A DNA stretch of 64,000 nucleotides from Planctomycetota bacterium (lineage in GTDB: Bacteria > Planctomycetota > B15-G4 > JADJEK01), in the NCBI GenBank assembly GCA_044225365.1, contig JBGAIQ010000011.1:1-64000 (forward strand), written 5' to 3'. The stretch's first letter is position 1, and every line of letters begins with the position of its first letter. Below, piece by piece: positions 26,478 through 54,041 of the stretch. The notes under the pieces are model-generated. The model had not been told where the DNA came from. It did not search any database and was given only the letters and a program-made list of their open reading frames with translations. Both the position numbers and the translations under genes were made by a program.

Positions 26478-27065
26478 TCAGCGCGGCGCGTCGTCGATGA
26501 CGCTCGCGTGGATCCCGAAGCGCGAGTTCGGGAACTCTCGCGCGCAGCGTTCCCACGACGCCCGCATCGCGGCGAAGTCCTTGTTGCCCGCGATGAAGCC
26601 CGCCATGCCCTGCAGGTACAGCGCTTCGGGGACGACCGGCGCATCGGCGAAGTCGCGCAGCAGTTCGTCGCACAGCGCCTTCGAGCCGACGGCGTCGCCG
26701 CGCTGCCATGCGGCCTGCGCCCGCACGAACAACAATTCGGCGCGATACGCTCGCGGCGGCAGCCAACCCGTGTAACGCCGGATCTCGCGGCCCTTCTCGC
26801 TGAAGATGAACGTGGGTGCGAACGACACGCGCTGCCCCATGCTCGCTTCCTTCATGTCGGGATGTCTCGCGAGGAGATCGATCTTCAGCCCGACGAAGCT
26901 GGAACGGAGTGCGCTCTCGACCTCGGAGTCTGGATACGTCACGGTATCCATGCGACGGCAGCCCAGTCAGCCGGGCGCGTGCACGAAGGTCATCAGGATG
27001 CGATTCTCGGCCTCGGCCTTGGTGCGAGCGTCGGCGAGGGAAGAGAGGAAGAAGTCATCGAGCAT
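26478..27065 (-). CDS. Probable selenoprotein: thioredoxin-like (UxxC) domain plus TPR-like helical tail
   Basis: In-frame TGA at 26967-26969 joins two ORFs to read HAPG-U-LGCRRMDTVTYPD; cis-Pro loop FAPT; hairpin downstream of the TGA. Confidence 0.85.
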
Positions 27066-27142
27066 GATCGGTCTCGTTCGTTGCGTCCCCCGCACGATAC
27101 AAGAATCGGGGCCGCGGCACACGACCGTGCACGCATGGGCCG

Positions 27143-28606
27143 TCAGCGACCGCTCCCCGACGCCGTCGCCTTCCAATCCGGATGCACCTCCAGGAACAAG
27201 GTGTCCGCGCCGCGCGTGACGAAGAGTGAGATCGTCGCCGCATGCGCCGCGGCGGCCGTCGCGAGTTTGTTCGACAGGTCCGTCGCGTCCGCGACGGACG
27301 CACCGTCCACCTCGCGAACGATGTCGCCGACCCGCACGCCCGCGAGGCCCGCGAATCCCGTTCGCTTCACGATCGTTGCCCGCGCGCCCTTCGCGTCGCT
27401 CGGCAGATCGAGATCGGCACGATCCGAGTAGACGAGATCGCGCGCGGTGATACCGAATGCCGGACTCTCCGCCTTCTTCGCGTCGTTCACCTGAGCCGGC
27501 GCTGCGACGAGTTGCGCCTTCGCCACGTCTTCCGTCTCCCCGCGACGATACGAGAGTGCAATCACATCTCCCGGAGCATGAGCGCCGAGTTTGCTCGAGA
27601 GTTCGGTCTGATCGCCCTCGGCCTTGCAGTGCAAGGCTTCACCGTCGATCGCGAACAGGAGATCACCGCTGCGAAGGCCCGCGTTCGCTGCGGGCGAGTC
27701 CGGCATCACGCGCGTGAGGAGCACGCCCATTCGTGCTTGGGGTACGCCCAGCGCCGCCGCGAGTTCCGGAAGGAGGACCTGCGACTCGATGCCGAGCCAC
27801 CCGCGCACGCTCGCCACGGGTTCCTTGGTGGATTGCGTTGCATTCTCCGGCGGCTGCGCGACGAGACTCGCAAAGCGCGAGGCGGGCACGACGACGATCT
27901 CGTCGCCGTTGTTGTCGTAGCCCTGGATGTCGGCGAGCAGGTCGAGCGACCGCTCACCGGTGACGGGGTCGGACTTCGGAGTGCGCGCGAGCAGCGACAG
28001 GTGATTCACGATGCCGACGATGCGTCCGTCGAACGCGACGACCGGAGCGCCGAGATAGTCGGAGATCGCATACGTCGTGACGTAGCACTTGGGATCCGCA
28101 ATGGCGGCGCTCACCATGAATGCATCGATGTACGGGGCGGAGCGGAAGCTCGGACCCGCGAGACGCAAGGTCGCGAAGAAGTCGCCGACGTCGAGAGCGT
28201 CGTTCTTCGCGAACTCGATCGGCGCGATCTCGAAACCGTCGTCCGCGAGCGACAAGAACGCGAGGCTCGTCGCCGCGTCCATTCCGCGAAGTTTGGCGTC
28301 GAACGTCTTCCCGCCCGCGATCGTGACTCGAATCGAAGTGATTCGCGAGCCGAGCGCCGCGCTCTCCTTGAACAGATCCGAGGGCGTCATCACGAGCCGC
28401 TTCTGAACGACCACTCCGATGCCATGGCTCTCGAGGTCGACGTCGACACCGTTGTCGAGTTGCTTGCGAACGACCGAATCGACTCGAACGACCGACGGAC
28501 CCACCTTCTGATGGATCGTCCGCAGTTGGCTCGAGTCGCTCGTCTGCGCCCCTGCGAGGTGTGAGAACGCGAGGACGAATGCGGTGGTCAGGATCCGAAG
28601 TCTCAT
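27143..28606 (-). CDS. HtrA-like protein with two PDZ domains, apparently non-catalytic
   Basis: PSVVRV, GIGVVV, G.PV...DGRIVGI, GWLGI PDZ; lacks the TNxH and GNSGG motifs. Confidence 0.8.
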   Translation of the reverse strand: MRLRILTTAFVLAFSHLAGAQTSDSSQLRTIHQKVGPSVVRVDSVVRKQLDNGVDVDLESHGIGVVVQKRLVMTPSDLFKESAALGSRITSIRVTIAGGKTFDAKLRGMDAATSLAFLSLADDGFEIAPIEFAKNDALDVGDFFATLRLAGPSFRSAPYIDAFMVSAAIADPKCYVTTYAISDYLGAPVVAFDGRIVGIVNHLSLLARTPKSDPVTGERSLDLLADIQGYDNNGDEIVVVPASRFASLVAQPPENATQSTKEPVASVRGWLGIESQVLLPELAAALGVPQARMGVLLTRVMPDSPAANAGLRSGDLLFAIDGEALHCKAEGDQTELSSKLGAHAPGDVIALSYRRGETEDVAKAQLVAAPAQVNDAKKAESPAFGITARDLVYSDRADLDLPSDAKGARATIVKRTGFAGLAGVRVGDIVREVDGASVADATDLSNKLATAAAAHAATISLFVTRGADTLFLEVHPDWKATASGSGR

Positions 28607-45655: not shown

Positions 45656-46000
45656 TCAGTGGCCGGTCACGATGGTCTCGTACTTGGCGTAGAGACCGAA
45701 GAGGATGATGTCGATGGTGCAGTCGACTTGTTCGACGACGTCGATGCGGGCCTTCTGCGCCGCAGAGGTCACGGTCGCATCGCCCCACGCGAACAGTCCG
45801 AACATGCTGTACGACGCGGAGCGGCCCTCGCGCCCGCCCATCTGGGTCTGATCGAAGGTCGTGTCGACGGGAACTCCAATGTTGGTGAATCCCGTGCCGA
45901 TCGGCGGCGGATTCAACACCGGACTGCGGATGTAGACGCACGCGCCGTTCGTGCCGAGCAGCGCCGCGAGGAGAGCGAATCGAAGAGTCTTGATCTTCAT
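45656..46000 (-). CDS. TRL-like family lipoprotein
   Basis: Lipobox, G.S.S.S.FGLFAWGDA....AA, T.V.G end. Confidence 0.75.
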   Translation of the reverse strand: MKIKTLRFALLAALLGTNGACVYIRSPVLNPPPIGTGFTNIGVPVDTTFDQTQMGGREGRSASYSMFGLFAWGDATVTSAAQKARIDVVEQVDCTIDIILFGLYAKYETIVTGH

Positions 46001-46009
46001 GGTGGCGCC

Positions 46010-46387
46010 TCAGGTTCCGTACACACGAATGGTCGTGATGGAGAAGATCCCGAGGATCTGCATGAACTCGTAATCCGCGTACGAGACCTTGCTGATGTTG
46101 CTCTCTCGCGCGATCCGAGCGATCGTCGCGTCGTCCCAAGCGAAGCTGAGACCCGTGAACAGGAAATCACGGAAGTAGTGAACGCTGCGCTCCTGCGCCA
46201 TGTGGACGCTGCTCGGGCCCGTGAGGTTCCCGTTGACGTTCGTGGTGAGCGGAGCGCGGAAGGACGTGAAGAAGAACCCACGCGGCGGAATGACGGCTCC
46301 GCCCGTGTTGTCGCGCGGCTCGGAGGCACAGCCCGCGAGCGTCGCGAGCAGCAACCCACCGAGGAGCGTCAGTGATCGGGATGTCAT
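46010..46387 (-). CDS. TRL-like family lipoprotein
   Basis: LAGC lipobox, PP.G..FT...APL, FAWDDA.I..IA, I.....ADY, T.RVYG. Confidence 0.75.
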   Translation of the reverse strand: MTSRSLTLLGGLLLATLAGCASEPRDNTGGAVIPPRGFFFTSFRAPLTTNVNGNLTGPSSVHMAQERSVHYFRDFLFTGLSFAWDDATIARIARESNISKVSYADYEFMQILGIFSITTIRVYGT

Positions 46388-46401
46388 GGTCCCATCCCTC
46401 G

Positions 46402-46734
46402 TCAATTGCCGTACGCCCGCACCGTGAAGCGCTCGTACATGAACATGATGTTCAACGCTTGATAGTCCGCGTGCTCGATCGTCTGCAGATTCCCGTTCCG
46501 CGCCGCGGAGTCGAGGGAGCAGTCACCGAACGCGAACATGTTGAGGAAGAACGCGCTGGAACTCGCTTCTCCCATCTTCGAACAAACGGGTGTCTTGTTG
46601 GCGTCGATGTCGAGCGGAGCCGACACCGACGTGAACATGAGTCCCTGAGGCGGCATCACCGGTGCCTGGTAGAAGATGCAACCGGTTCCCGAAAACGCCA
46701 GGACGGCACAAGCAGCCAATGCGCGCAAACTCAT
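46402..46734 (-). CDS. TRL-like family lipoprotein
   Basis: GTGC lipobox, PPQGL.FT.V.APL, K.GEA, FA.GD.S...AA.NG, HADY. Confidence 0.8.
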   Translation of the reverse strand: MSLRALAACAVLAFSGTGCIFYQAPVMPPQGLMFTSVSAPLDIDANKTPVCSKMGEASSSAFFLNMFAFGDCSLDSAARNGNLQTIEHADYQALNIMFMYERFTVRAYGN

Positions 46735-46977: not shown

Positions 46978-49900
46978 ATCTCGCGATATCTTCGCCTCTG
47001 CGGCTTCCTGCTCTTCGCTTGTCCGGCCTTCGCGGCGAACGAAGTCTCGCTGCCCGCGCGCTTCGACTTGAAGCCCGCCGTGGCCGGCTACAAGGCCGGC
47101 TACACCGGCGTCGACTCGTCGCAGACGTTTACGAGCGGGACCGGCTACGGCTTCGAGTCGCCCGCAACGGATTCGCGCTACGGCGGGCATCCGTGCGACG
47201 ACGTCGTCGACCGCGACGATCCCGAGCGCGACCTGTTGCGCGGTTGCGTGCGGGTCGCGAACGGCACGCGCTTCTCGGTGCGACTGCCGCCGCTCACGAA
47301 GGTCCGTGTCCGCGTCGTACTGTCGAGCGTTCCGTTCTGGTACTCGCCGGGAACGACGCATTATCAAATCTCGCCGTCGCGGATCGACGACCTCTCCATC
47401 TCCATCACCAAGGGCAGTTCGAGTGCGGCGATCGTCGCGGGCAACATCGATCTGCGGACCGCGTGGCAGAAGGGGTCGCTCGACACCGAGATCGGCTCGT
47501 ATCGCAAGGTCTGGTTCACGGGCACGAGCGGCAATGACGGCGTACTGCGCATCGGGTTCTTCGGTCCCTCCGGCGTCCTCATCCCGATCGCCGCCGTCGA
47601 GGTGTATCCGTTCGAGGCCGCGCCGCTCGTCTATCACCGTCAGGGATCGGTCTGGCTCGCGAGCCCCACCGGCGCGAACGTCCCCGGCCTCGCGTCGTTC
47701 CACGCGCATGACTACGCCGCCGCTCGCGCTGCATTCGCGACGATCGGCGATCCCTTGTTGCGCGCCTACGCCTTCGCCTTCATGGGCGGCTGGCTCGATG
47801 GAACGAGCGACGATCCCGGCGCCGACCTCCTCGCCTGCGAATCCGCGCTCGACGATCCCTCGCTCGCGACCGATCCGCGCGCCATCGAACTGCGCGACGA
47901 ACTCTCCGACTTCACCTGCGCCGAGAAGCACTATCGACTGCGGGGCTTCTCCTGGTCGTATCCGATGCCGCCGGAAGGCGAGGGTTGGTTCAACAGCACC
48001 GACCCGAACGTCTTGCTGTGCGCGTCGTCGACCGCGAAGTCCGCGGAGAAGCATTACTATCTGGCCGAGGCGATCTACGCGCAGGCTTGCGGACATACGA
48101 TCGATCCGATCGTCGCGGAGAATGCGGGCACGCACACCGATGGCGAGTTCGAGCCCTCGCCCTTCGCATTCCGATCCCTCGAGCGCATCAGTGCGATCCA
48201 TCTCGGCCTGAACGCCACGCACGGTTACATCTCGGGCGGCGCCGCGCAGGCGGGCAAGCTCGCGGCGCTCGATCTCGCCGAAGCGATCCTTCGCGCATTC
48301 GATACAGGAAGTTTCCTGTCGAAGGAGTTCGCCGGCAACTCGGGACTCGCGTCGCTCGCGTATTCGGCCCGACCCGAAGTGCACCATCACAGTGAGAACG
48401 GTGGCCTCTTCACGAACTGGGACGGCACGGATATCTCGATGACGGCCTTCGACCCCTCGAAGGCTTGGTGGAAGAATTCGATCCTCGCGCAGGATCCGGA
48501 CCCGAGCGTGCCGCCGTGGGCCGATCTCGAGCGACGCTATCTCTCGCTCTTTCGCGCCGGTGTGAAATGGTGGGTGCTCACTGCTGCGAAGAACCACGAA
48601 TATGGCGGCGGATTCGGCGACGACCCGGAACTCGCTGGCCTGCTCGTCCTTCCCTATGCCGCGATCGAACATCCGTCGGATCAGGCGATTCGTGATGAAC
48701 TCGTGGCGGCCGGTCAGAAGACTCTGAATTCGAGCTGGGTCGGAAATGGTTATTACGACGACGTCGCGATCGACGTGGAACACTCCGCGGAATTCACGAC
48801 GTATCCCCTGCTCACCAGCCTCTCACTGAAACCGAAGGAGCCGGCGTTGATGCAGCGGTGCCTCGACGTCGCGCGCCATCTGGCGGCGCCGCCCTCGGGA
48901 TCGCAGCCGTGGACGGTCGTCGACGCTCAGGGAAGGCGATTCTTCGCTTCCTACATCTTCAACTCCGCGGGCCCGGTCGACCTCACGGATCCGAACGCCG
49001 CGCCGTTCGGGATCGATGTCCCGCTCGACTGCAAGGCACTCGTGCCCTCGCTCCTGTTCCTCGGCCAGATGAAGAATCCGACTCTCCAGTCCGACCTCTT
49101 CGATTGGCTGAAATCGTGGCGCGACGAGGCGATCGCGCCCGCCGCGCCGCTTCCGAAGGGCTTGGTTCCTGCGGGCATTCGCGCCCTCGACCATTCATAC
49201 GGCACGAACGGCCATTGGTGGGAAGTCCCGGTCGCCCCCAATTCCTACTGTTTCCCGGCGAACCTGTCGCAGATGGTCCAACTCTACGCCGGCTTCTTCG
49301 GCGACGCGCACGATCTCGACGACCAGACTCCTTATAAATGGCTCCTGCCCGCCCTTCGCCTCACGCAGGGCGTGCTCGGACTCGAAGCCGCGATCGCCGC
49401 CGGTCAGACGCCTTCCGACGTCGGCACCGTCGGCACCGCCAACTGGGCGCTCGATCAACTCCGCGCGTCGAGCAGCTTCTGGCAGCTCGCCGCGTGGTCG
49501 CGTCCCCGCTTCGCCACCGATTCATACCTGCGCACGACCGACGACCCCGAGGTCGGCGGCACGTCGCCCTACGTGAGCGATACGTTCCTCAGCACGCTCG
49601 ACGCCGCGCTCAGTGTCCACGACGTCGGTTATCCGACGCACCTCGCCGTGCCGCAAGGACCGATCGACGTCCAGGGCGGCCAATACGGTCGAAAGGGGAA
49701 GAACGGCCTCACGATGCAACTGACGCGCGGGACGAAGTGGCTCACGAACTACTTCCCGCTCGCGACGACATCGGTCCTCTACACCGATCGCGCGTTCCTG
49801 TTCAACCAGTCGTCGCACCAGACGCTCTACGGCATGCTCACGGGCGGCGACGTCGGACTCGCGGCGCCCAACAACGTGTGCACCTGGACGACGCCGGCGC

Positions 49901-50748
49901 CGGGAGACCCTCCGCTCGACGTGAGCATCCTCGTCAACGACCTTGCCACCGGCGCGGGCGGGACGAATCCGCGCTTGCGTGTCCTGCTCTTCAATTTCGA
50001 GAACGGGCAACGCAACGTCGGCATCCGCCTGTGGCATCGCCTGCCGTTCGGCCAGTACGCCCTGCGATACGGCGAGGCGCTCGCATCGACGGACTACTTC
50101 AAGAATGGCCAATACAACGAGAAGACGATCACCTTCGACCAACGCGGTGACGAATTCGACTTCCCGCTCGACGGCCGAAAGCTGACCCTCCTCGAGATCG
50201 AGCACATCGGTCCGGCGACGGCCGCTCCCGGCTTCGACCTCGCTCTATCGAACGCGCAATCACCGTTCTCGATGGACTCCGGTCCCGACTTCTTCACCGC
50301 GAATGCCGCCGCCTCGAACTTTGGCGACGCCAGCGTCCCCGCCGCCAACGTCGAAGCGCACGTCGTGGTGAAGCGCGCGACGGGCGAAGCGGTCGTCCTC
50401 GACAAATTGGGTACGACCGAACTCGTGCTTCCGCTCGACTCCGATTTCACGGGTGTCTCGGGGTTCAACGGTTACGACCTCCCGAGCGTCGCGCTCGAAC
50501 GAACTCTTCCTCTGCCGAAGGAAGCGCTCGCACTGCTTTCCTATGGCTGCCGGATCGAGATCACGTTCGTGAGCACACTCCCCGATACCGACGCCACGAA
50601 TGACTCCGTGAAGCTGACGTTCGACGCGTCGACGCTCTCCGGCCTCGACCCCACGATCACGCTGCCGAAGGCGCCGAAGAAGGCGGCGAAGCTCGAGAAG
50701 GCGCTGAAGAAGGCGGGCAAGGCCCTGGCGAAGGCCTGGGCGCCCTGA
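46978..50748 (+). CDS. Large secreted hypothetical protein (N-terminal galactose-binding-like domain, helical core, Ig-like C-terminus); start uncertain
   Basis: Frame is open upstream of TTG 47068 through a signal peptide (RYLRLCGFLLFACPAFA); FD....V.GY..V.....F....GYG motif; YGGG.GDD.E and DVEHSAE. Confidence 0.75.
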   Translation: MSRYLRLCGFLLFACPAFAANEVSLPARFDLKPAVAGYKAGYTGVDSSQTFTSGTGYGFESPATDSRYGGHPCDDVVDRDDPERDLLRGCVRVANGTRFSVRLPPLTKVRVRVVLSSVPFWYSPGTTHYQISPSRIDDLSISITKGSSSAAIVAGNIDLRTAWQKGSLDTEIGSYRKVWFTGTSGNDGVLRIGFFGPSGVLIPIAAVEVYPFEAAPLVYHRQGSVWLASPTGANVPGLASFHAHDYAAARAAFATIGDPLLRAYAFAFMGGWLDGTSDDPGADLLACESALDDPSLATDPRAIELRDELSDFTCAEKHYRLRGFSWSYPMPPEGEGWFNSTDPNVLLCASSTAKSAEKHYYLAEAIYAQACGHTIDPIVAENAGTHTDGEFEPSPFAFRSLERISAIHLGLNATHGYISGGAAQAGKLAALDLAEAILRAFDTGSFLSKEFAGNSGLASLAYSARPEVHHHSENGGLFTNWDGTDISMTAFDPSKAWWKNSILAQDPDPSVPPWADLERRYLSLFRAGVKWWVLTAAKNHEYGGGFGDDPELAGLLVLPYAAIEHPSDQAIRDELVAAGQKTLNSSWVGNGYYDDVAIDVEHSAEFTTYPLLTSLSLKPKEPALMQRCLDVARHLAAPPSGSQPWTVVDAQGRRFFASYIFNSAGPVDLTDPNAAPFGIDVPLDCKALVPSLLFLGQMKNPTLQSDLFDWLKSWRDEAIAPAAPLPKGLVPAGIRALDHSYGTNGHWWEVPVAPNSYCFPANLSQMVQLYAGFFGDAHDLDDQTPYKWLLPALRLTQGVLGLEAAIAAGQTPSDVGTVGTANWALDQLRASSSFWQLAAWSRPRFATDSYLRTTDDPEVGGTSPYVSDTFLSTLDAALSVHDVGYPTHLAVPQGPIDVQGGQYGRKGKNGLTMQLTRGTKWLTNYFPLATTSVLYTDRAFLFNQSSHQTLYGMLTGGDVGLAAPNNVCTWTTPAPGDPPLDVSILVNDLATGAGGTNPRLRVLLFNFENGQRNVGIRLWHRLPFGQYALRYGEALASTDYFKNGQYNEKTITFDQRGDEFDFPLDGRKLTLLEIEHIGPATAAPGFDLALSNAQSPFSMDSGPDFFTANAAASNFGDASVPAANVEAHVVVKRATGEAVVLDKLGTTELVLPLDSDFTGVSGFNGYDLPSVALERTLPLPKEALALLSYGCRIEITFVSTLPDTDATNDSVKLTFDASTLSGLDPTITLPKAPKKAAKLEKALKKAGKALAKAWAP

Positions 50749-50862
50749 TTCGAGTCCCCCGTCGGGCAGCTTCGCAAGATCGAGATCCGTCGTTATGATC
50801 GGCGCACTTCGTCGAAGACGCTTCGACCATCTCGACATCGATCGTTCCGGGAGGTTCCAGTC

Positions 50863-51915
50863 TTGTCGACATCGCTGCTGAAACGTCTGTTGGGGCTTGG
50901 CGCCGTCGCCTGCGTGCTCGCAGTCGGCGCGCACGCTGAGGTCAAGGTCGGCGACAAGGCCGCCGAGATCAAGGCGGACAAGATCCTCAACTCCAAGTTG
51001 AAGAGTCTGAAAGAGGTGCGTGGCTCGCTCGTCCTCTACGAGTACTTTGCGTACTGGTGAGGTCCTTGCAAGGCCGGTGTGCCTCACATCAACCAGTTGG
51101 TTGAGAAGTATGCGAAGAAGGGTCTTGTCGTGGTGGGCTTGACGGACGAGCCCGAAGCTCCGACGGCGAAGTACATCACCGATACGGGCTTCAAGGCGAC
51201 GGTCGTGTTCGAACCGGGCCTGAAGAGCATGAAGGACTATGGTTTCACGGGATTCCCATCGTCCGCGCTCGTGAACTCCAAGGGCGACGTCGTGTGGACC
51301 GGCCATCCCGCTGGACTCACGGAAGCGATCATCGAGGAGAACCTGAAGGGCGCGAGGCCGCCGGGTGCGCCCTCGATCTACGCCGACCTCAAACCGGATA
51401 TCGATGCCCTGCCCAAGTTCCAACCGATCAGCAAGAAGATCGCGGGCGGACAGGTCGGTGCCGGACTCGGTGACATCGAGAAAGCGCTGACGGGCAAGTT
51501 GACCGACGCCGAGAAGAAATCGCTCGACGCCATGTCCACCGAGATCAAGGCGATCTACGACGAAGAGATGAAGGCCGCCGACGAGGCCGTCGAGACCCAG
51601 CGCTGGTTCGATGCCAAGTTCGCGTGGGCGCGCCTCGAAAAGGCGTTCAAGGGCCATACGCTCGCGGAGGAGCCGACGAAGAAGCTCGCGGAACTCGCAC
51701 AGAACACCGCGATCGGTGAAGAGCTGGCCGCTGGACAAGAGATCCAGAAGGCGCTCGCGCTCAAGGAAAAGGATGACGTCGACGGCTGCGTGAAGGCTCT
51801 GAAGCGCGTCACGTCCGGCCCGCTCAAGGCAACGGCCGAGGCGGGACGCGCGGGAAAGCTCCTCGAGGAGATCGAGGCCGAGACCAAGAAGAGCAAGACC
51901 GCACCGAAGAAGTGA
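50863..51915 (+). CDS. Probable exported selenoprotein: TlpA/redoxin (W-U-GPC) plus a helical C-terminal domain
   Basis: GGAGG RBS, signal peptide, VGDKA.E, FAYW-TGA(51058-51060)-GPC...PH.N.L..KY...GL.VVG, GFPS..LV. Confidence 0.9.
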
Positions 51916-51954: not shown

Positions 51955-53178
51955 TCACGCGATCGCGTTCGACAACTGCATCGCCGCCGAGAGTTCCCCG
52001 TCGATGAGCGACGTCAATCGCTTCTGCATGTCGCTGAGCAGTTTCTCCGTGTCCTTCCCGCCCAGGGGAAAGTCCTTCACGAGCCACTGATCGAGTTGCT
52101 GCTGACGCTCGGCGTGCTTCTTCATCTTGGGGATGAACTCGGCGCCCTTCCGGCGGAACAGCGAGTAGCGCTCCTTCCAGATCTGCTTCGTTTCCCGAAA
52201 CGGCGCACAGTCGTTCGGCAGACAGGCGTCTGCGAATTCGGTCCAGTCGTGAGCGAGTTTCCTAAAAGGCTTCCCCATCGCCTCGATCTTCCTCGACTTG
52301 ATCGCCGCGCCCGCCTCTTCGAGGAATTCAGCGAACAACTCGCGGTGCAAACCGCCGCCGGTCATCGCCTCGGTCGTGGCGTAGACATCGCGCAGTGCGG
52401 AGTAGAGTTTTCCGCCTGGATAGAGTCGCGCCCAGGCCTTCGGATGTTTCTCGTTCTTCAGCGCGCTCGCGAAATCGCGGAGGGCGTCGAGGGAATGCGA
52501 GGCGTTCTTCGGCCGAGTGATCTCGAGCACGCAGGCTTCGATTCCACGGCGAACGGCATTGCTGAGCCGATCGAGAGGGATCGGCGGGGTCCGCACGAGC
52601 GGGACGTGCAGCACCCGATTCTGGGCATTCGCCAACATCGAGCGCGCGGTGAGGAGCGAGTCCGAAGGAACGCTGAGTGTGCCGACGGGAAGGTCGCCGA
52701 GGATCGCGTCGCCATTCGCGGCGTCGAAGCCGTATACGACGACGAGATGGGACCAGCCATGCGCGGCATACTGTTGAGGCAGCCCCCAATGCGAAAGATA
52801 ACAAGGCTGCGTGTAGACGATCGGTAATGCTCCGGCGGCGAGCGCATCGTCGACGCTTCGTTGCGCGAGTTTGCCGGATGGCGATTCCTTCACTTCGAAT
52901 GGAATGCCGAGGCGATCGAGCGCGCCGGCGAGGAACTCGGGGCCGGTCGAATAGAGCTTGTGGCGACCGACGATCGTGATGCCGCTCGTCCATCCCACCG
53001 GATTCGTCGAGTGCGCGTATCCCGCCCCGATCCCACCCGCGATGCCGAAGAGCATCGCCTCGCTCGGCGGCTGACCCTGCGGCGCGAGGCGAACCTCGGC
53101 GCGGGCGAGCGCGGCATGCAATGCGGCGCTCTCGGAGTGTCGTCCTCCGACGTGTGCAATGGCACCTAGCAGGGTCAC
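51955..53178 (-). CDS. BtrH N-terminal/DUF4872-like protein
   Basis: GG.H.ESAAL, SEAMLFGIAGGIG.GY, H.VVVYG.D, GGG..R.LFAEFL.EA; GGAGG RBS. Confidence 0.7.
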   Translation of the reverse strand: MTLLGAIAHVGGRHSESAALHAALARAEVRLAPQGQPPSEAMLFGIAGGIGAGYAHSTNPVGWTSGITIVGRHKLYSTGPEFLAGALDRLGIPFEVKESPSGKLAQRSVDDALAAGALPIVYTQPCYLSHWGLPQQYAAHGWSHLVVVYGFDAANGDAILGDLPVGTLSVPSDSLLTARSMLANAQNRVLHVPLVRTPPIPLDRLSNAVRRGIEACVLEITRPKNASHSLDALRDFASALKNEKHPKAWARLYPGGKLYSALRDVYATTEAMTGGGLHRELFAEFLEEAGAAIKSRKIEAMGKPFRKLAHDWTEFADACLPNDCAPFRETKQIWKERYSLFRRKGAEFIPKMKKHAERQQQLDQWLVKDFPLGGKDTEKLLSDMQKRLTSLIDGELSAAMQLSNAIA

Positions 53179-53351
53179 GGCTCGATCCTCCGATCGACGT
53201 CGCTTCGAGGGGCAGTCTGGTCGCGTTGTCGTCCGCATCGCATCGTACCGGCTCGCTCTTCGGATCTGCATTGCCGCGGTGCGCGGCAATTCGAGTTTCG
53301 GCGCTCTGCTGCTACTCTCACGTCCTGGACCGAACCTCGCGTGAGCCCTCG

Positions 53352-54041
53352 ATGAATGTCCTGAAGTCCGGACTGCTACGCCTCGTCGCCCTCGCGCTCG
53401 TCGCGCTTTCGTGCGAGGCCTCGAAACGGGCGCCGACTGCGCCCTCGCCGCCAACTCCTCCATGGCACGACCTTCTCGCGGGAGTCACTTCGGAGTCGCT
53501 CTCGAACTGGAAGAAGTGCGGTTTCGGGGGCGAAGGCGAAGTCCTATTCGACGACGGCCGTCTCGTGCTCGCGCAGGGCGAGCCCCTGACCGGCATCACC
53601 TGGGCCGGGTCCCCCGAAATGCCGCGCGGGGAGTACGAGATCGAGGTCGAAGCGGCCCGCCTGCTCGGAACCGACTTCTTCTGCGCGCTCACGTTTCCCA
53701 TCGGCGAACAGAGCGCGAGCGTCATCCTCGGCGGCTGGGGTGGATCGCTCGTGGGACTGTCGTGCATCGACGGCGAAGACGCATCGCAGAACGCCACCAA
53801 GACCTTTCGCGGATTCGAACGGAGCCGGTTCTATCGGCTGCGGGTCAAAGTGACGAACGATCGCGTCCAAGGTGTTCTCGACGACACGGACGTTCTCTTC
53901 GACGTCGATCGCGGGGCGCATGCCTTCGCCGTGCGCACCGAGGTGGAGCGTTGCCGACCGCTCGGGATCGCGTCGTACAACACGCAGGCGGCGATCCGGC
54001 GGCTCGCGTGGCGTCCTCTCCGATCGGACTCGCCGAAGTGA
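53352..54041 (+). CDS. DUF1080 (3-keto-disaccharide hydrolase-like) lipoprotein
   Basis: LVALSC lipobox; FGGEGEV, DFFC.LTFP, GGWGG.LVGLS.IDG.DAS.N. Confidence 0.8.
   Translation: MNVLKSGLLRLVALALVALSCEASKRAPTAPSPPTPPWHDLLAGVTSESLSNWKKCGFGGEGEVLFDDGRLVLAQGEPLTGITWAGSPEMPRGEYEIEVEAARLLGTDFFCALTFPIGEQSASVILGGWGGSLVGLSCIDGEDASQNATKTFRGFERSRFYRLRVKVTNDRVQGVLDDTDVLFDVDRGAHAFAVRTEVERCRPLGIASYNTQAAIRRLAWRPLRSDSPK

Follow-up and report, generated by a model that had tools for sequence, protein, structure and literature searches.

The gene at 50863–51915 is, with a probability of about 0.9 as judged from sequence comparison, a genuine selenoprotein gene in which the in-frame UGA at 51058–51060 would be translated as selenocysteine (Sec). 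It lies in a stretch of 64,000 nucleotides (the window) that forms part of contig C75 of a planctomycete genome, a metagenome assembly of 6.53 Mb in 103 contigs with 65% G+C and 94% completeness. The DUF1501/DUF1553 and Sigma70_ECF families that it encodes fit this phylum. A single frame of 350 codons runs from a TTG at 50863 to a TGA at 51913–51915. The sole TGA inside this frame is that at 51058–51060, which is surrounded by TAC TGG TGA GGT CCT TGC. Under translation table 11 the same frame is divided into two ORFs, one of 65 aa (50863–51060) and one of 278 aa that begins with a GTG (51079–51915). Reading through the TGA gives a 350-residue product whose residue 66 is U. The initial annotation had recognized here a WCGPC motif with TGA at the first Cys that joins two ORFs into a 350-aa protein; this is confirmed on the sequence, and a Pfam domain match extends across the TGA. 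The features of the gene are as follows.

50850–50854, plus strand: putative Shine–Dalgarno-like GGAGG, 8 nt upstream of the TTG start, proposed from the sequence
50863–51915, plus strand: proposed selenoprotein gene, 350 codons and the terminal TGA (51913–51915), aligning end to end with 17 orthologues of 317–339 aa
50863–50937, plus strand: predicted Sec-type signal peptide, residues 1–25, read by eye from the sequence
50944–51315, plus strand: thioredoxin-fold domain (Redoxin/AhpC-TSA; ResA/DsbE/TlpA-like), from Pfam and Foldseek
51055–51069, plus strand: active-site motif W-U-G-P-C (TGG TGA GGT CCT TGC), with W65, C/U66, P68 and C69 invariant in 18 sequences
51058–51060, plus strand: predicted UGA codon for selenocysteine (residue 66), the column holding TGA in 37 related loci and Cys in three
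51071–51084, plus strand: weak hairpin AGGC-CGGUGU-GCCU, an alternative SECIS that is not supported
51089–51104, plus strand: most likely SECIS, UCAACC-AGUU-GGUUGA, from covariation, rare codons and a genome-wide hairpin rule
51373–51900, plus strand: all-helical TPR-like C-terminal domain, residues about 171–346, eight helices, from AlphaFold models

The position of the TGA is conserved among relatives. A six-frame search finds homologues in 59 of 60 related genomes (60 of 61 when its own is counted), and 16 of the 19 non-self loci fetched carry TGA exactly at the U66 column, within W-*-G-P-C or minor variants of it. Cys occupies this column in L020, L027 and L028, of which L027 has one Cys copy and one Sec copy. 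TGA is again found at the U66 column in L155, a second copy within one genome, and in all 20 additional loci from a wider search. The TGA thus stands at one column across 37 loci whose proteins share 25–49% identity, with the sequence conserved on both flanks. Across the phylum, 134 of an even sample of 301 genomes contain a full-length match at E ≤ 1e-40. Among the 150 matches listed (56 further matches exist) an in-frame TGA is present in 122 and absent from 28, its exact position having been verified in the 37 loci above. The UGA aligns with a Cys of homologues, both in the three loci named above and in eight full-length database proteins. Metagenome contigs scanned with the post-TGA ORF yielded nothing beyond L153 and L154, both distant relatives with Cys.

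The genome contains the machinery for Sec synthesis and insertion. A tRNA-Sec with anticodon tca, 98 nt in length and with a long extra arm, was located by ARAGORN at C95:99943–100040. The selA match (486.6 bits), the selD match (361.5 bits, TIGR00476) and the selB match (346.5 bits) all exceed their curated cut-offs; that of selB spans positions 1–579 of the 581 of TIGR00475 and is accompanied by a SelB-wing_2 match. The search for Sec machinery that the initial annotation had proposed therefore recovered selA, selB, selD and tRNA-Sec, with a full-length SelB, and the hidden selenoprotein that it had postulated is upheld by this complete set and by the common TGA column in 37 loci. The selA gene is directly followed by selD at C90:85984–88375 (plus strand), and selD, which has its own in-frame TGA and a CGUGA-loop hairpin, appears itself to encode a selenoprotein (S-C-A-G-U-A-A-K). 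As TGA is the stop codon of 1381 of 1596 confident long ORFs (86.5%), that of the present gene included, the genetic code is standard and TGA has not been reassigned.

Searching the genome for TGAs that lie in frame between two stretches with coding signal gave 522 candidates, of which 40 were chosen by eye for a redox-like context and tested with Pfam with the TGA read through. In 12 of the 40 a domain match crosses the TGA (for SelD this is the TIGR00476 match), and two more were kept without a Pfam match, giving 14 candidate Sec genes. A hairpin rule was fixed beforehand: the stem had to be perfect and 5 bp or longer, and the loop had to measure 3–8 nt, include GU and begin 15–37 nt past the UGA. 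Hairpins that satisfy this rule at ≤ −6.3 kcal/mol follow the UGA in 13 of the 14 genes, with loops that begin 18–35 nt past it and read CGUGA(N), AGUU(G), GGUC, GUU or GUC; by comparison, such a hairpin at ≤ −6 kcal/mol follows 6.05% of 4000 Cys codons in confident ORFs. In addition to selD and the gene described here, the candidates with assigned coordinates are:

C82:80873–82973, minus strand, and C85:67161–67892, plus strand: three Redoxin paralogues with D-F-W-G-F-W-U-G-P-C-R-A-M, two of them in tandem, sharing an identical CACGAGC-GGUC-GCUCGUG hairpin
window 26577–27176, minus strand, TGA 26969–26967: Thioredoxin_2/Thioredoxin_7/DsbH-like protein with P-G-U-L-G-C and a TPR_16-like tail, the domain crossing the TGA
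C31:24081–24704, plus strand, TGA 24312 (L046): NMT1_2/SsuA-like ABC-transporter substrate-binding protein with V-T-U-H-L-T-C-P, the TGA lying within the Pfam match
C2:36750–37532, minus strand, TGA 37142 (L040): W-Q-Y-G-U-L-C, coding on both sides, no match in Pfam or NCBIfam; hairpin GGCCGU-CGUGCU-ACGGCC, 24 nt past the UGA
C85:11014–11796, minus strand, TGA 11406 (L041): G-C-T-U-N-N-G, coding on both sides, no Pfam or NCBIfam match, no hairpin by the rule

A Pfam match also crosses the TGA in a Prx/BCP protein with a CGUGA loop, in an AhpC-TSA protein with U-V-S-C and in a CMD/AhpD-like protein with C-x-x-U, while Thioredoxin_7-like and ArsC-like candidates have domain matches under the Pfam cut-off. 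The minus-strand gene at 26577–27176 is the other UxxC gene of the window to which the initial annotation had referred; it was found with its TGA at 26969 and a 7-bp hairpin (UGGAUAC-CGUGAC-GUAUCCA) whose loop starts 24 nt past the UGA. L046 has a 7-bp hairpin with an AGUUG loop 22 nt past the UGA. The preprint on SaoB (10.1101/2022.07.06.499078) states that before SaoB no Sec-containing binding protein was known, and L046 may represent a further family of this kind.

The other candidates among the 40 are neighbouring genes that share a frame, for example L35/L20, FlgH/FlgI and S8/L6. A TRL-like (PF13146) tandem in the window (45659–46402, minus strand; the candidate pair at 46012), whose two genes share a frame and are separated by a TGA that precedes an ATG and a signal-peptide-like start, is a look-alike rather than a selenoprotein. 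When the hairpin rule was applied to all 522 candidates it gave 48 matches, many of them terminator-like stems past true stops, and no further clear selenoprotein.

From this non-exhaustive scan the selenoproteome is put at about 11–14 genes, which makes the genome selenoprotein-rich without being record-sized. The expectation of a very large selenoproteome is thus borne out in part, as the set is rich by the criterion of six or more selenoproteins given by Zhang et al. (2006) and remains far from the 31 given in the same study. The suggestion that the SECIS would be relaxed or atypical did not hold, given the GU-loop hairpin in 13 of 14 genes against 6% of controls and the full-length canonical SelB match. 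The 13 hairpins of this one genome provide a usable organism-specific SECIS set.

In the present gene the SECIS is most likely the hairpin UCAACC-AGUU-GGUUGA at 51089–51104, which is formed from a 6-bp stem and an AGUU loop starting 35 nt past the UGA. With a free energy of −6.3 kcal/mol it is the weakest of the 13 hairpins and the farthest from its UGA. Bacterial SECIS elements are allowed a spacing of 16–37 nt, and 35 nt is near the far end of this range. Sequence comparison indicates that the hairpin is under selection. Its 3' arm uses codons that are rare in the genome (UUG, 7.7% of Leu; GUU, 5.9% of Val), and the N-Q-L-V codons that encode it are identical in four of four close orthologues, the corresponding figure for the remaining conserved degenerate codons being 51 of 126 (Fisher p = 0.03). 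Two more distant orthologues have the AGUU loop at an equal distance, with a C-G to U-A exchange in the stem. In an alignment of six related sequences 95.2% of the cells are paired, a value matched by one of 500 shuffles; slid controls pair in at most 47.6%. Two of the base pairs change on both sides in a compensatory manner (C-G to U-A and G-C to C-G). Minimum free energy folding of 51050–51130 gives a stability no greater than that of shuffled sequences (z = −0.33), and a search of 50700–51400 against Rfam at E ≤ 10 returned chance miRNA and snoRNA matches and no SECIS model. Further afield, 7 of 20 more distant orthologues satisfy the same strict rule and the loops of L016–L018 (AGGA or AAGA) lie at 41 nt, so the position of the SECIS is not fixed across the family. 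In L019, L021 and L031 the hairpin lies nearer the UGA, its loop starting 18 nt past it, and in other members the strict rule detects none, so that the element shifts its place in the course of evolution.

It is possible, and on balance unlikely, that the gene encodes a selenoprotein whose working SECIS is instead AGGC-CGGUGU-GCCU (51071–51084), or a larger composite fold involving GUGAGG and CCUCAC. The far-end spacing of the preferred hairpin would fit this, as would the nearer hairpins of three relatives, since L019 and L021 have their strongest hairpin, GGUGCGGC-GGU-GCCGCACC, at that nearer position and L031 has CGUGCC there; SelD, Prx and the second gene of the window also have loops (CGUGA) similar to its CGGUGU. 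The AGGC hairpin has 4 base pairs only, however, and across six orthologues of the same architecture 66.7% of its cells are paired, a value equalled by 134 of 500 shuffles, compared with the one in 500 for 51089–51104. Of the two candidate hairpins put forward in the initial annotation, CAACC-AGTT-GGTTG is accordingly favoured by the hairpin rule, the identical codons and the covariation, and AGGC-CGGTGT-GCCT, while present, is not. Sequestration of the UGA by GTGAGG/CCTCAC, also proposed there, fares no better: both strings occur, but the region folds no more stably than its shuffles and the CCU that is needed reads CCC in two close orthologues.

That the TGA is a true stop, separating two genes or marking a pseudogene broken by a nonsense mutation, is a very improbable reading. 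Gene callers produce exactly such a split, with the 278-aa ORF starting from the GTG at 51079, and TGA is the usual stop codon of the genome. The 65-aa piece, however, would amount to a signal peptide and an incomplete (half) thioredoxin fold that stops one residue after the active site begins, and neither would be present in the 278-aa piece; a break at the same column also recurs in the 37 loci, at 25–49% identity and with both flanks conserved. A divergent 211-nt contig that stems from another study (X4) shows 13 differences, none of them in the TGA; they fall mostly at third codon positions and on both sides of the TGA (8 of the 11 differences listed, including 51063 and 51066). The same contig speaks against a sequencing or assembly error in which the true codon is TGC, for which a one-base difference would suffice and which a metagenome assembly of 103 contigs might be thought to harbour. 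The site is also unchanged in contigs from three runs of a sample from which this DNA may come (X1 and X2 with 0 differences), a comparison made between contigs rather than raw reads and one that a minor variant could escape. With TGA at the same column in 37 other loci, an error is scarcely credible and the least probable of these explanations. Translation of the UGA as Trp, Cys or another residue, through near-cognate suppression or a changed code, is about as improbable as a true stop. UGA is the leakiest of the stop codons, and this general point, with nothing specific to the gene, is what can be said for it; against it stand the standard code, with TGA ending 86.5% of confident ORFs including this one, the full Sec machinery and tRNA-Sec, the alignment of the UGA with the catalytic Cys and the conserved GU-loop hairpin downstream. 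Decoding of the UGA as Sec is therefore the reading adopted below.

The N-terminus of the protein resembles a signal peptide, with K7 and R8, a hydrophobic run and A-H-A before E26. It is hydrophobic in all 18 aligned sequences and has a pLDDT below 50 over residues 1–22 in the AlphaFold model. The protein is thus predicted to be exported. Residues 28–160 form a thioredoxin-like domain in the model, and Pfam matches to Redoxin (PF08534, 49.4 against 26.6 bits) and AhpC-TSA (PF00578, 47.1 against 26) cover residues 28–151 and cross the TGA. The top Foldseek matches are 4nmu, DsbE (3gl3), ResA (2h1b and 1st9), Etrx2 and the C-terminal domain of DipZ, with E values of 3e-9 to 1e-7 and TM scores (target) of 0.75–0.83. 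The domain has a ResA/DsbE/TlpA-like fold in which helix 1 begins with the CxxC-type motif, and in addition to W65, U/C66, P68 and C69 the G130-x-P132 loop is invariant in the 18 aligned sequences. The C-terminal domain (residues 171–346) consists of eight helices, with a pLDDT of 92 when modelled alone. Searched by itself with Foldseek it has no match at E ≤ 0.001. In VIA-align its best matches are TPR proteins, at a Z of 8.7 that is below the level trusted for helical repeats. Weak matches to TPR_14, TPR_16 or TPR_19 in Pfam occur in 5 of 18 orthologues (best 9.1e-6) and none in this protein. The Pfam, Foldseek and model results support the initial description of an exported TlpA-like W-U-GPC oxidoreductase with a helical C-terminal domain, the export signal having been read by eye.

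Given the ResA/DsbE-like fold, the Sec motif and the helical tail, the protein is most likely a periplasmic disulfide reductase or isomerase in which Sec would be the attacking residue and the helical domain would serve as an adaptor. As regards substrate and direction of electron flow, this assignment is somewhat more likely than not to be right. In the mechanism envisaged, the UGA at 51058–51060 would be decoded with Sec-tRNA(Sec) delivered by SelB, a small hairpin in the coding sequence, most likely 51089–51104, serving to recruit SelB. The 350-residue product would be exported through its N-terminal signal peptide and would act outside the cytoplasm as a thiol-disulfide oxidoreductase of the ResA/TlpA/DsbE type, with Sec66 in place of the attacking cysteine and Cys69 resolving the mixed selenenylsulfide. 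A DsbD/CcdA-type protein would keep the enzyme reduced, and the genome encodes a DsbD_TM protein at C93:61852–62493. The TPR-like tail would probably hold a partner or substrate. The flanking genes of 18 orthologues have no family in common and give no pointer to the substrate. In the window the gene is preceded by a 1226-aa ORF (47068–50748, plus strand) without a Pfam match at E ≤ 0.001 and followed by a BtrH_N/DUF4872 protein on the minus strand (51955–53463).

Most database entries of the family are shortened at the UGA. The nine nearest database proteins (40–100% identity) are all of 247–285 aa and cover the post-TGA part only. At E ≤ 1e-10 a profile of the C-terminal domain detects 634 cluster representatives. 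Of the 150 that score best, 132 are of at most 290 aa, lack the motif and start a few residues past the active site, 8 are full-length with CxxC, 7 are full-length with a degenerate motif that mostly retains the second Cys alone, and 3 are long repeat proteins. Full-length non-Sec forms that keep only the second motif cysteine (x-x-x-C) are P0063, P0114, P0116, P0171 and P0176, and in P0109 and P0184 the active-site motif is entirely lost. This pattern suggests that within the family Sec has often been lost rather than replaced by Cys. The gene and most of its relatives are in consequence stored as N-terminally shortened ‘Redoxin’ or ‘hypothetical’ entries that have neither signal peptide nor active site, and as no NCBIfam model reaches its cut-off a dedicated profile would mend hundreds of annotations.

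These proteins may constitute a large, undescribed family of exported proteins that combine a thioredoxin fold with a TPR-like domain and occur in close to half of the genomes sampled from the phylum, with Sec as the rule, Cys as the exception and many non-Sec full-length forms lacking the first active-site residue. This proposal is tentative and we rate its chances slightly below even. No description of this particular family was found in the literature; an earlier listing under a generic name, as in the sequence sets of the 2005–2008 surveys, is possible. If the proposal is true, selenium would be near-obligatory for some extracytoplasmic redox reaction, and the periplasmic selenoproteome of the phylum would be systematically absent from protein databases. 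With about four in five members containing Sec and predicted to be exported, the family would be a good system in which to ask what selenium buys outside the cytoplasm. The established picture of bacterial Sec decoding is unchanged.

Selenoproteins with a thioredoxin fold and a UxxC motif have been described since 2005, so this kind of protein is already known; what is less ordinary is the abundance of the family, its strong Sec dominance and the helical tail. Those described in 2005–2006 went by the names ‘Prx-like’, ‘thiol-disulfide isomerase-like’, ‘thiol:disulfide interchange protein’ and ‘DsbA-like’ (PMC1794560). As outlined in that source, they share with the present protein a thioredoxin or Redoxin fold, a Sec that comes first in UxxC and aligns with Cys, and a small hairpin past the UGA with a G in its apical loop. 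A TPR-like tail of 180 residues and so high a share of Sec do not figure in the descriptions given there (PMC1794560). Kim et al. (2016; PMC4807772, Table S9) list ‘thiol-disulfide isomerase-like thioredoxin’ selenoprotein candidates from Planctomycete P1, which probably belongs to the same phylum. These too are annotated as pairs of neighbouring genes divided by a TGA, the counterpart of which in relatives is Cys; both are marked ‘SECIS present: no’ in that table. The NCBIfam family NF041054 (‘ResA-like WAxxUGC motif-containing protein’, 354 positions) is likewise ResA-like, of about 350 residues and with an active-site Sec. The present protein matches this model in its thioredoxin part alone, at 25.9 bits where 300 are required, and has W-U-G-P-C rather than WAxxUGC, and is not a member.

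The closest structural parallels are the Cys-containing extracytoplasmic thiol-disulfide oxidoreductases ResA (1st9/2h1b), CcmG/DsbE, TlpA and Etrx (3gl3, 4nmu, 4hqz), which similarly contain a WCGPC-type motif, an export signal (predicted here) and the G-x-P loop seen at 130–132. The curated cut-offs of these families are not reached (ResA NF002854, 66.5 against 170 bits; DsbE TIGR00385, 34.7 against 123.15; TlpA NF047696, 28.2 against 230), and neither the window neighbours nor the flanks of 18 orthologues include cytochrome-maturation or Cu-chaperone genes. The protein would work like ResA, DsbE or TlpA and is an equivalog of none of them. A thioredoxin fold joined to a TPR-like helical domain, as here, is also found in CnoX/YbbN-type proteins, but these are cytoplasmic chaperone-redox proteins without Sec. 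In contrast to ResA, CcmG/DsbE, TlpA and Etrx, the present protein would have Sec in place of the attacking Cys and carries an additional helical domain.
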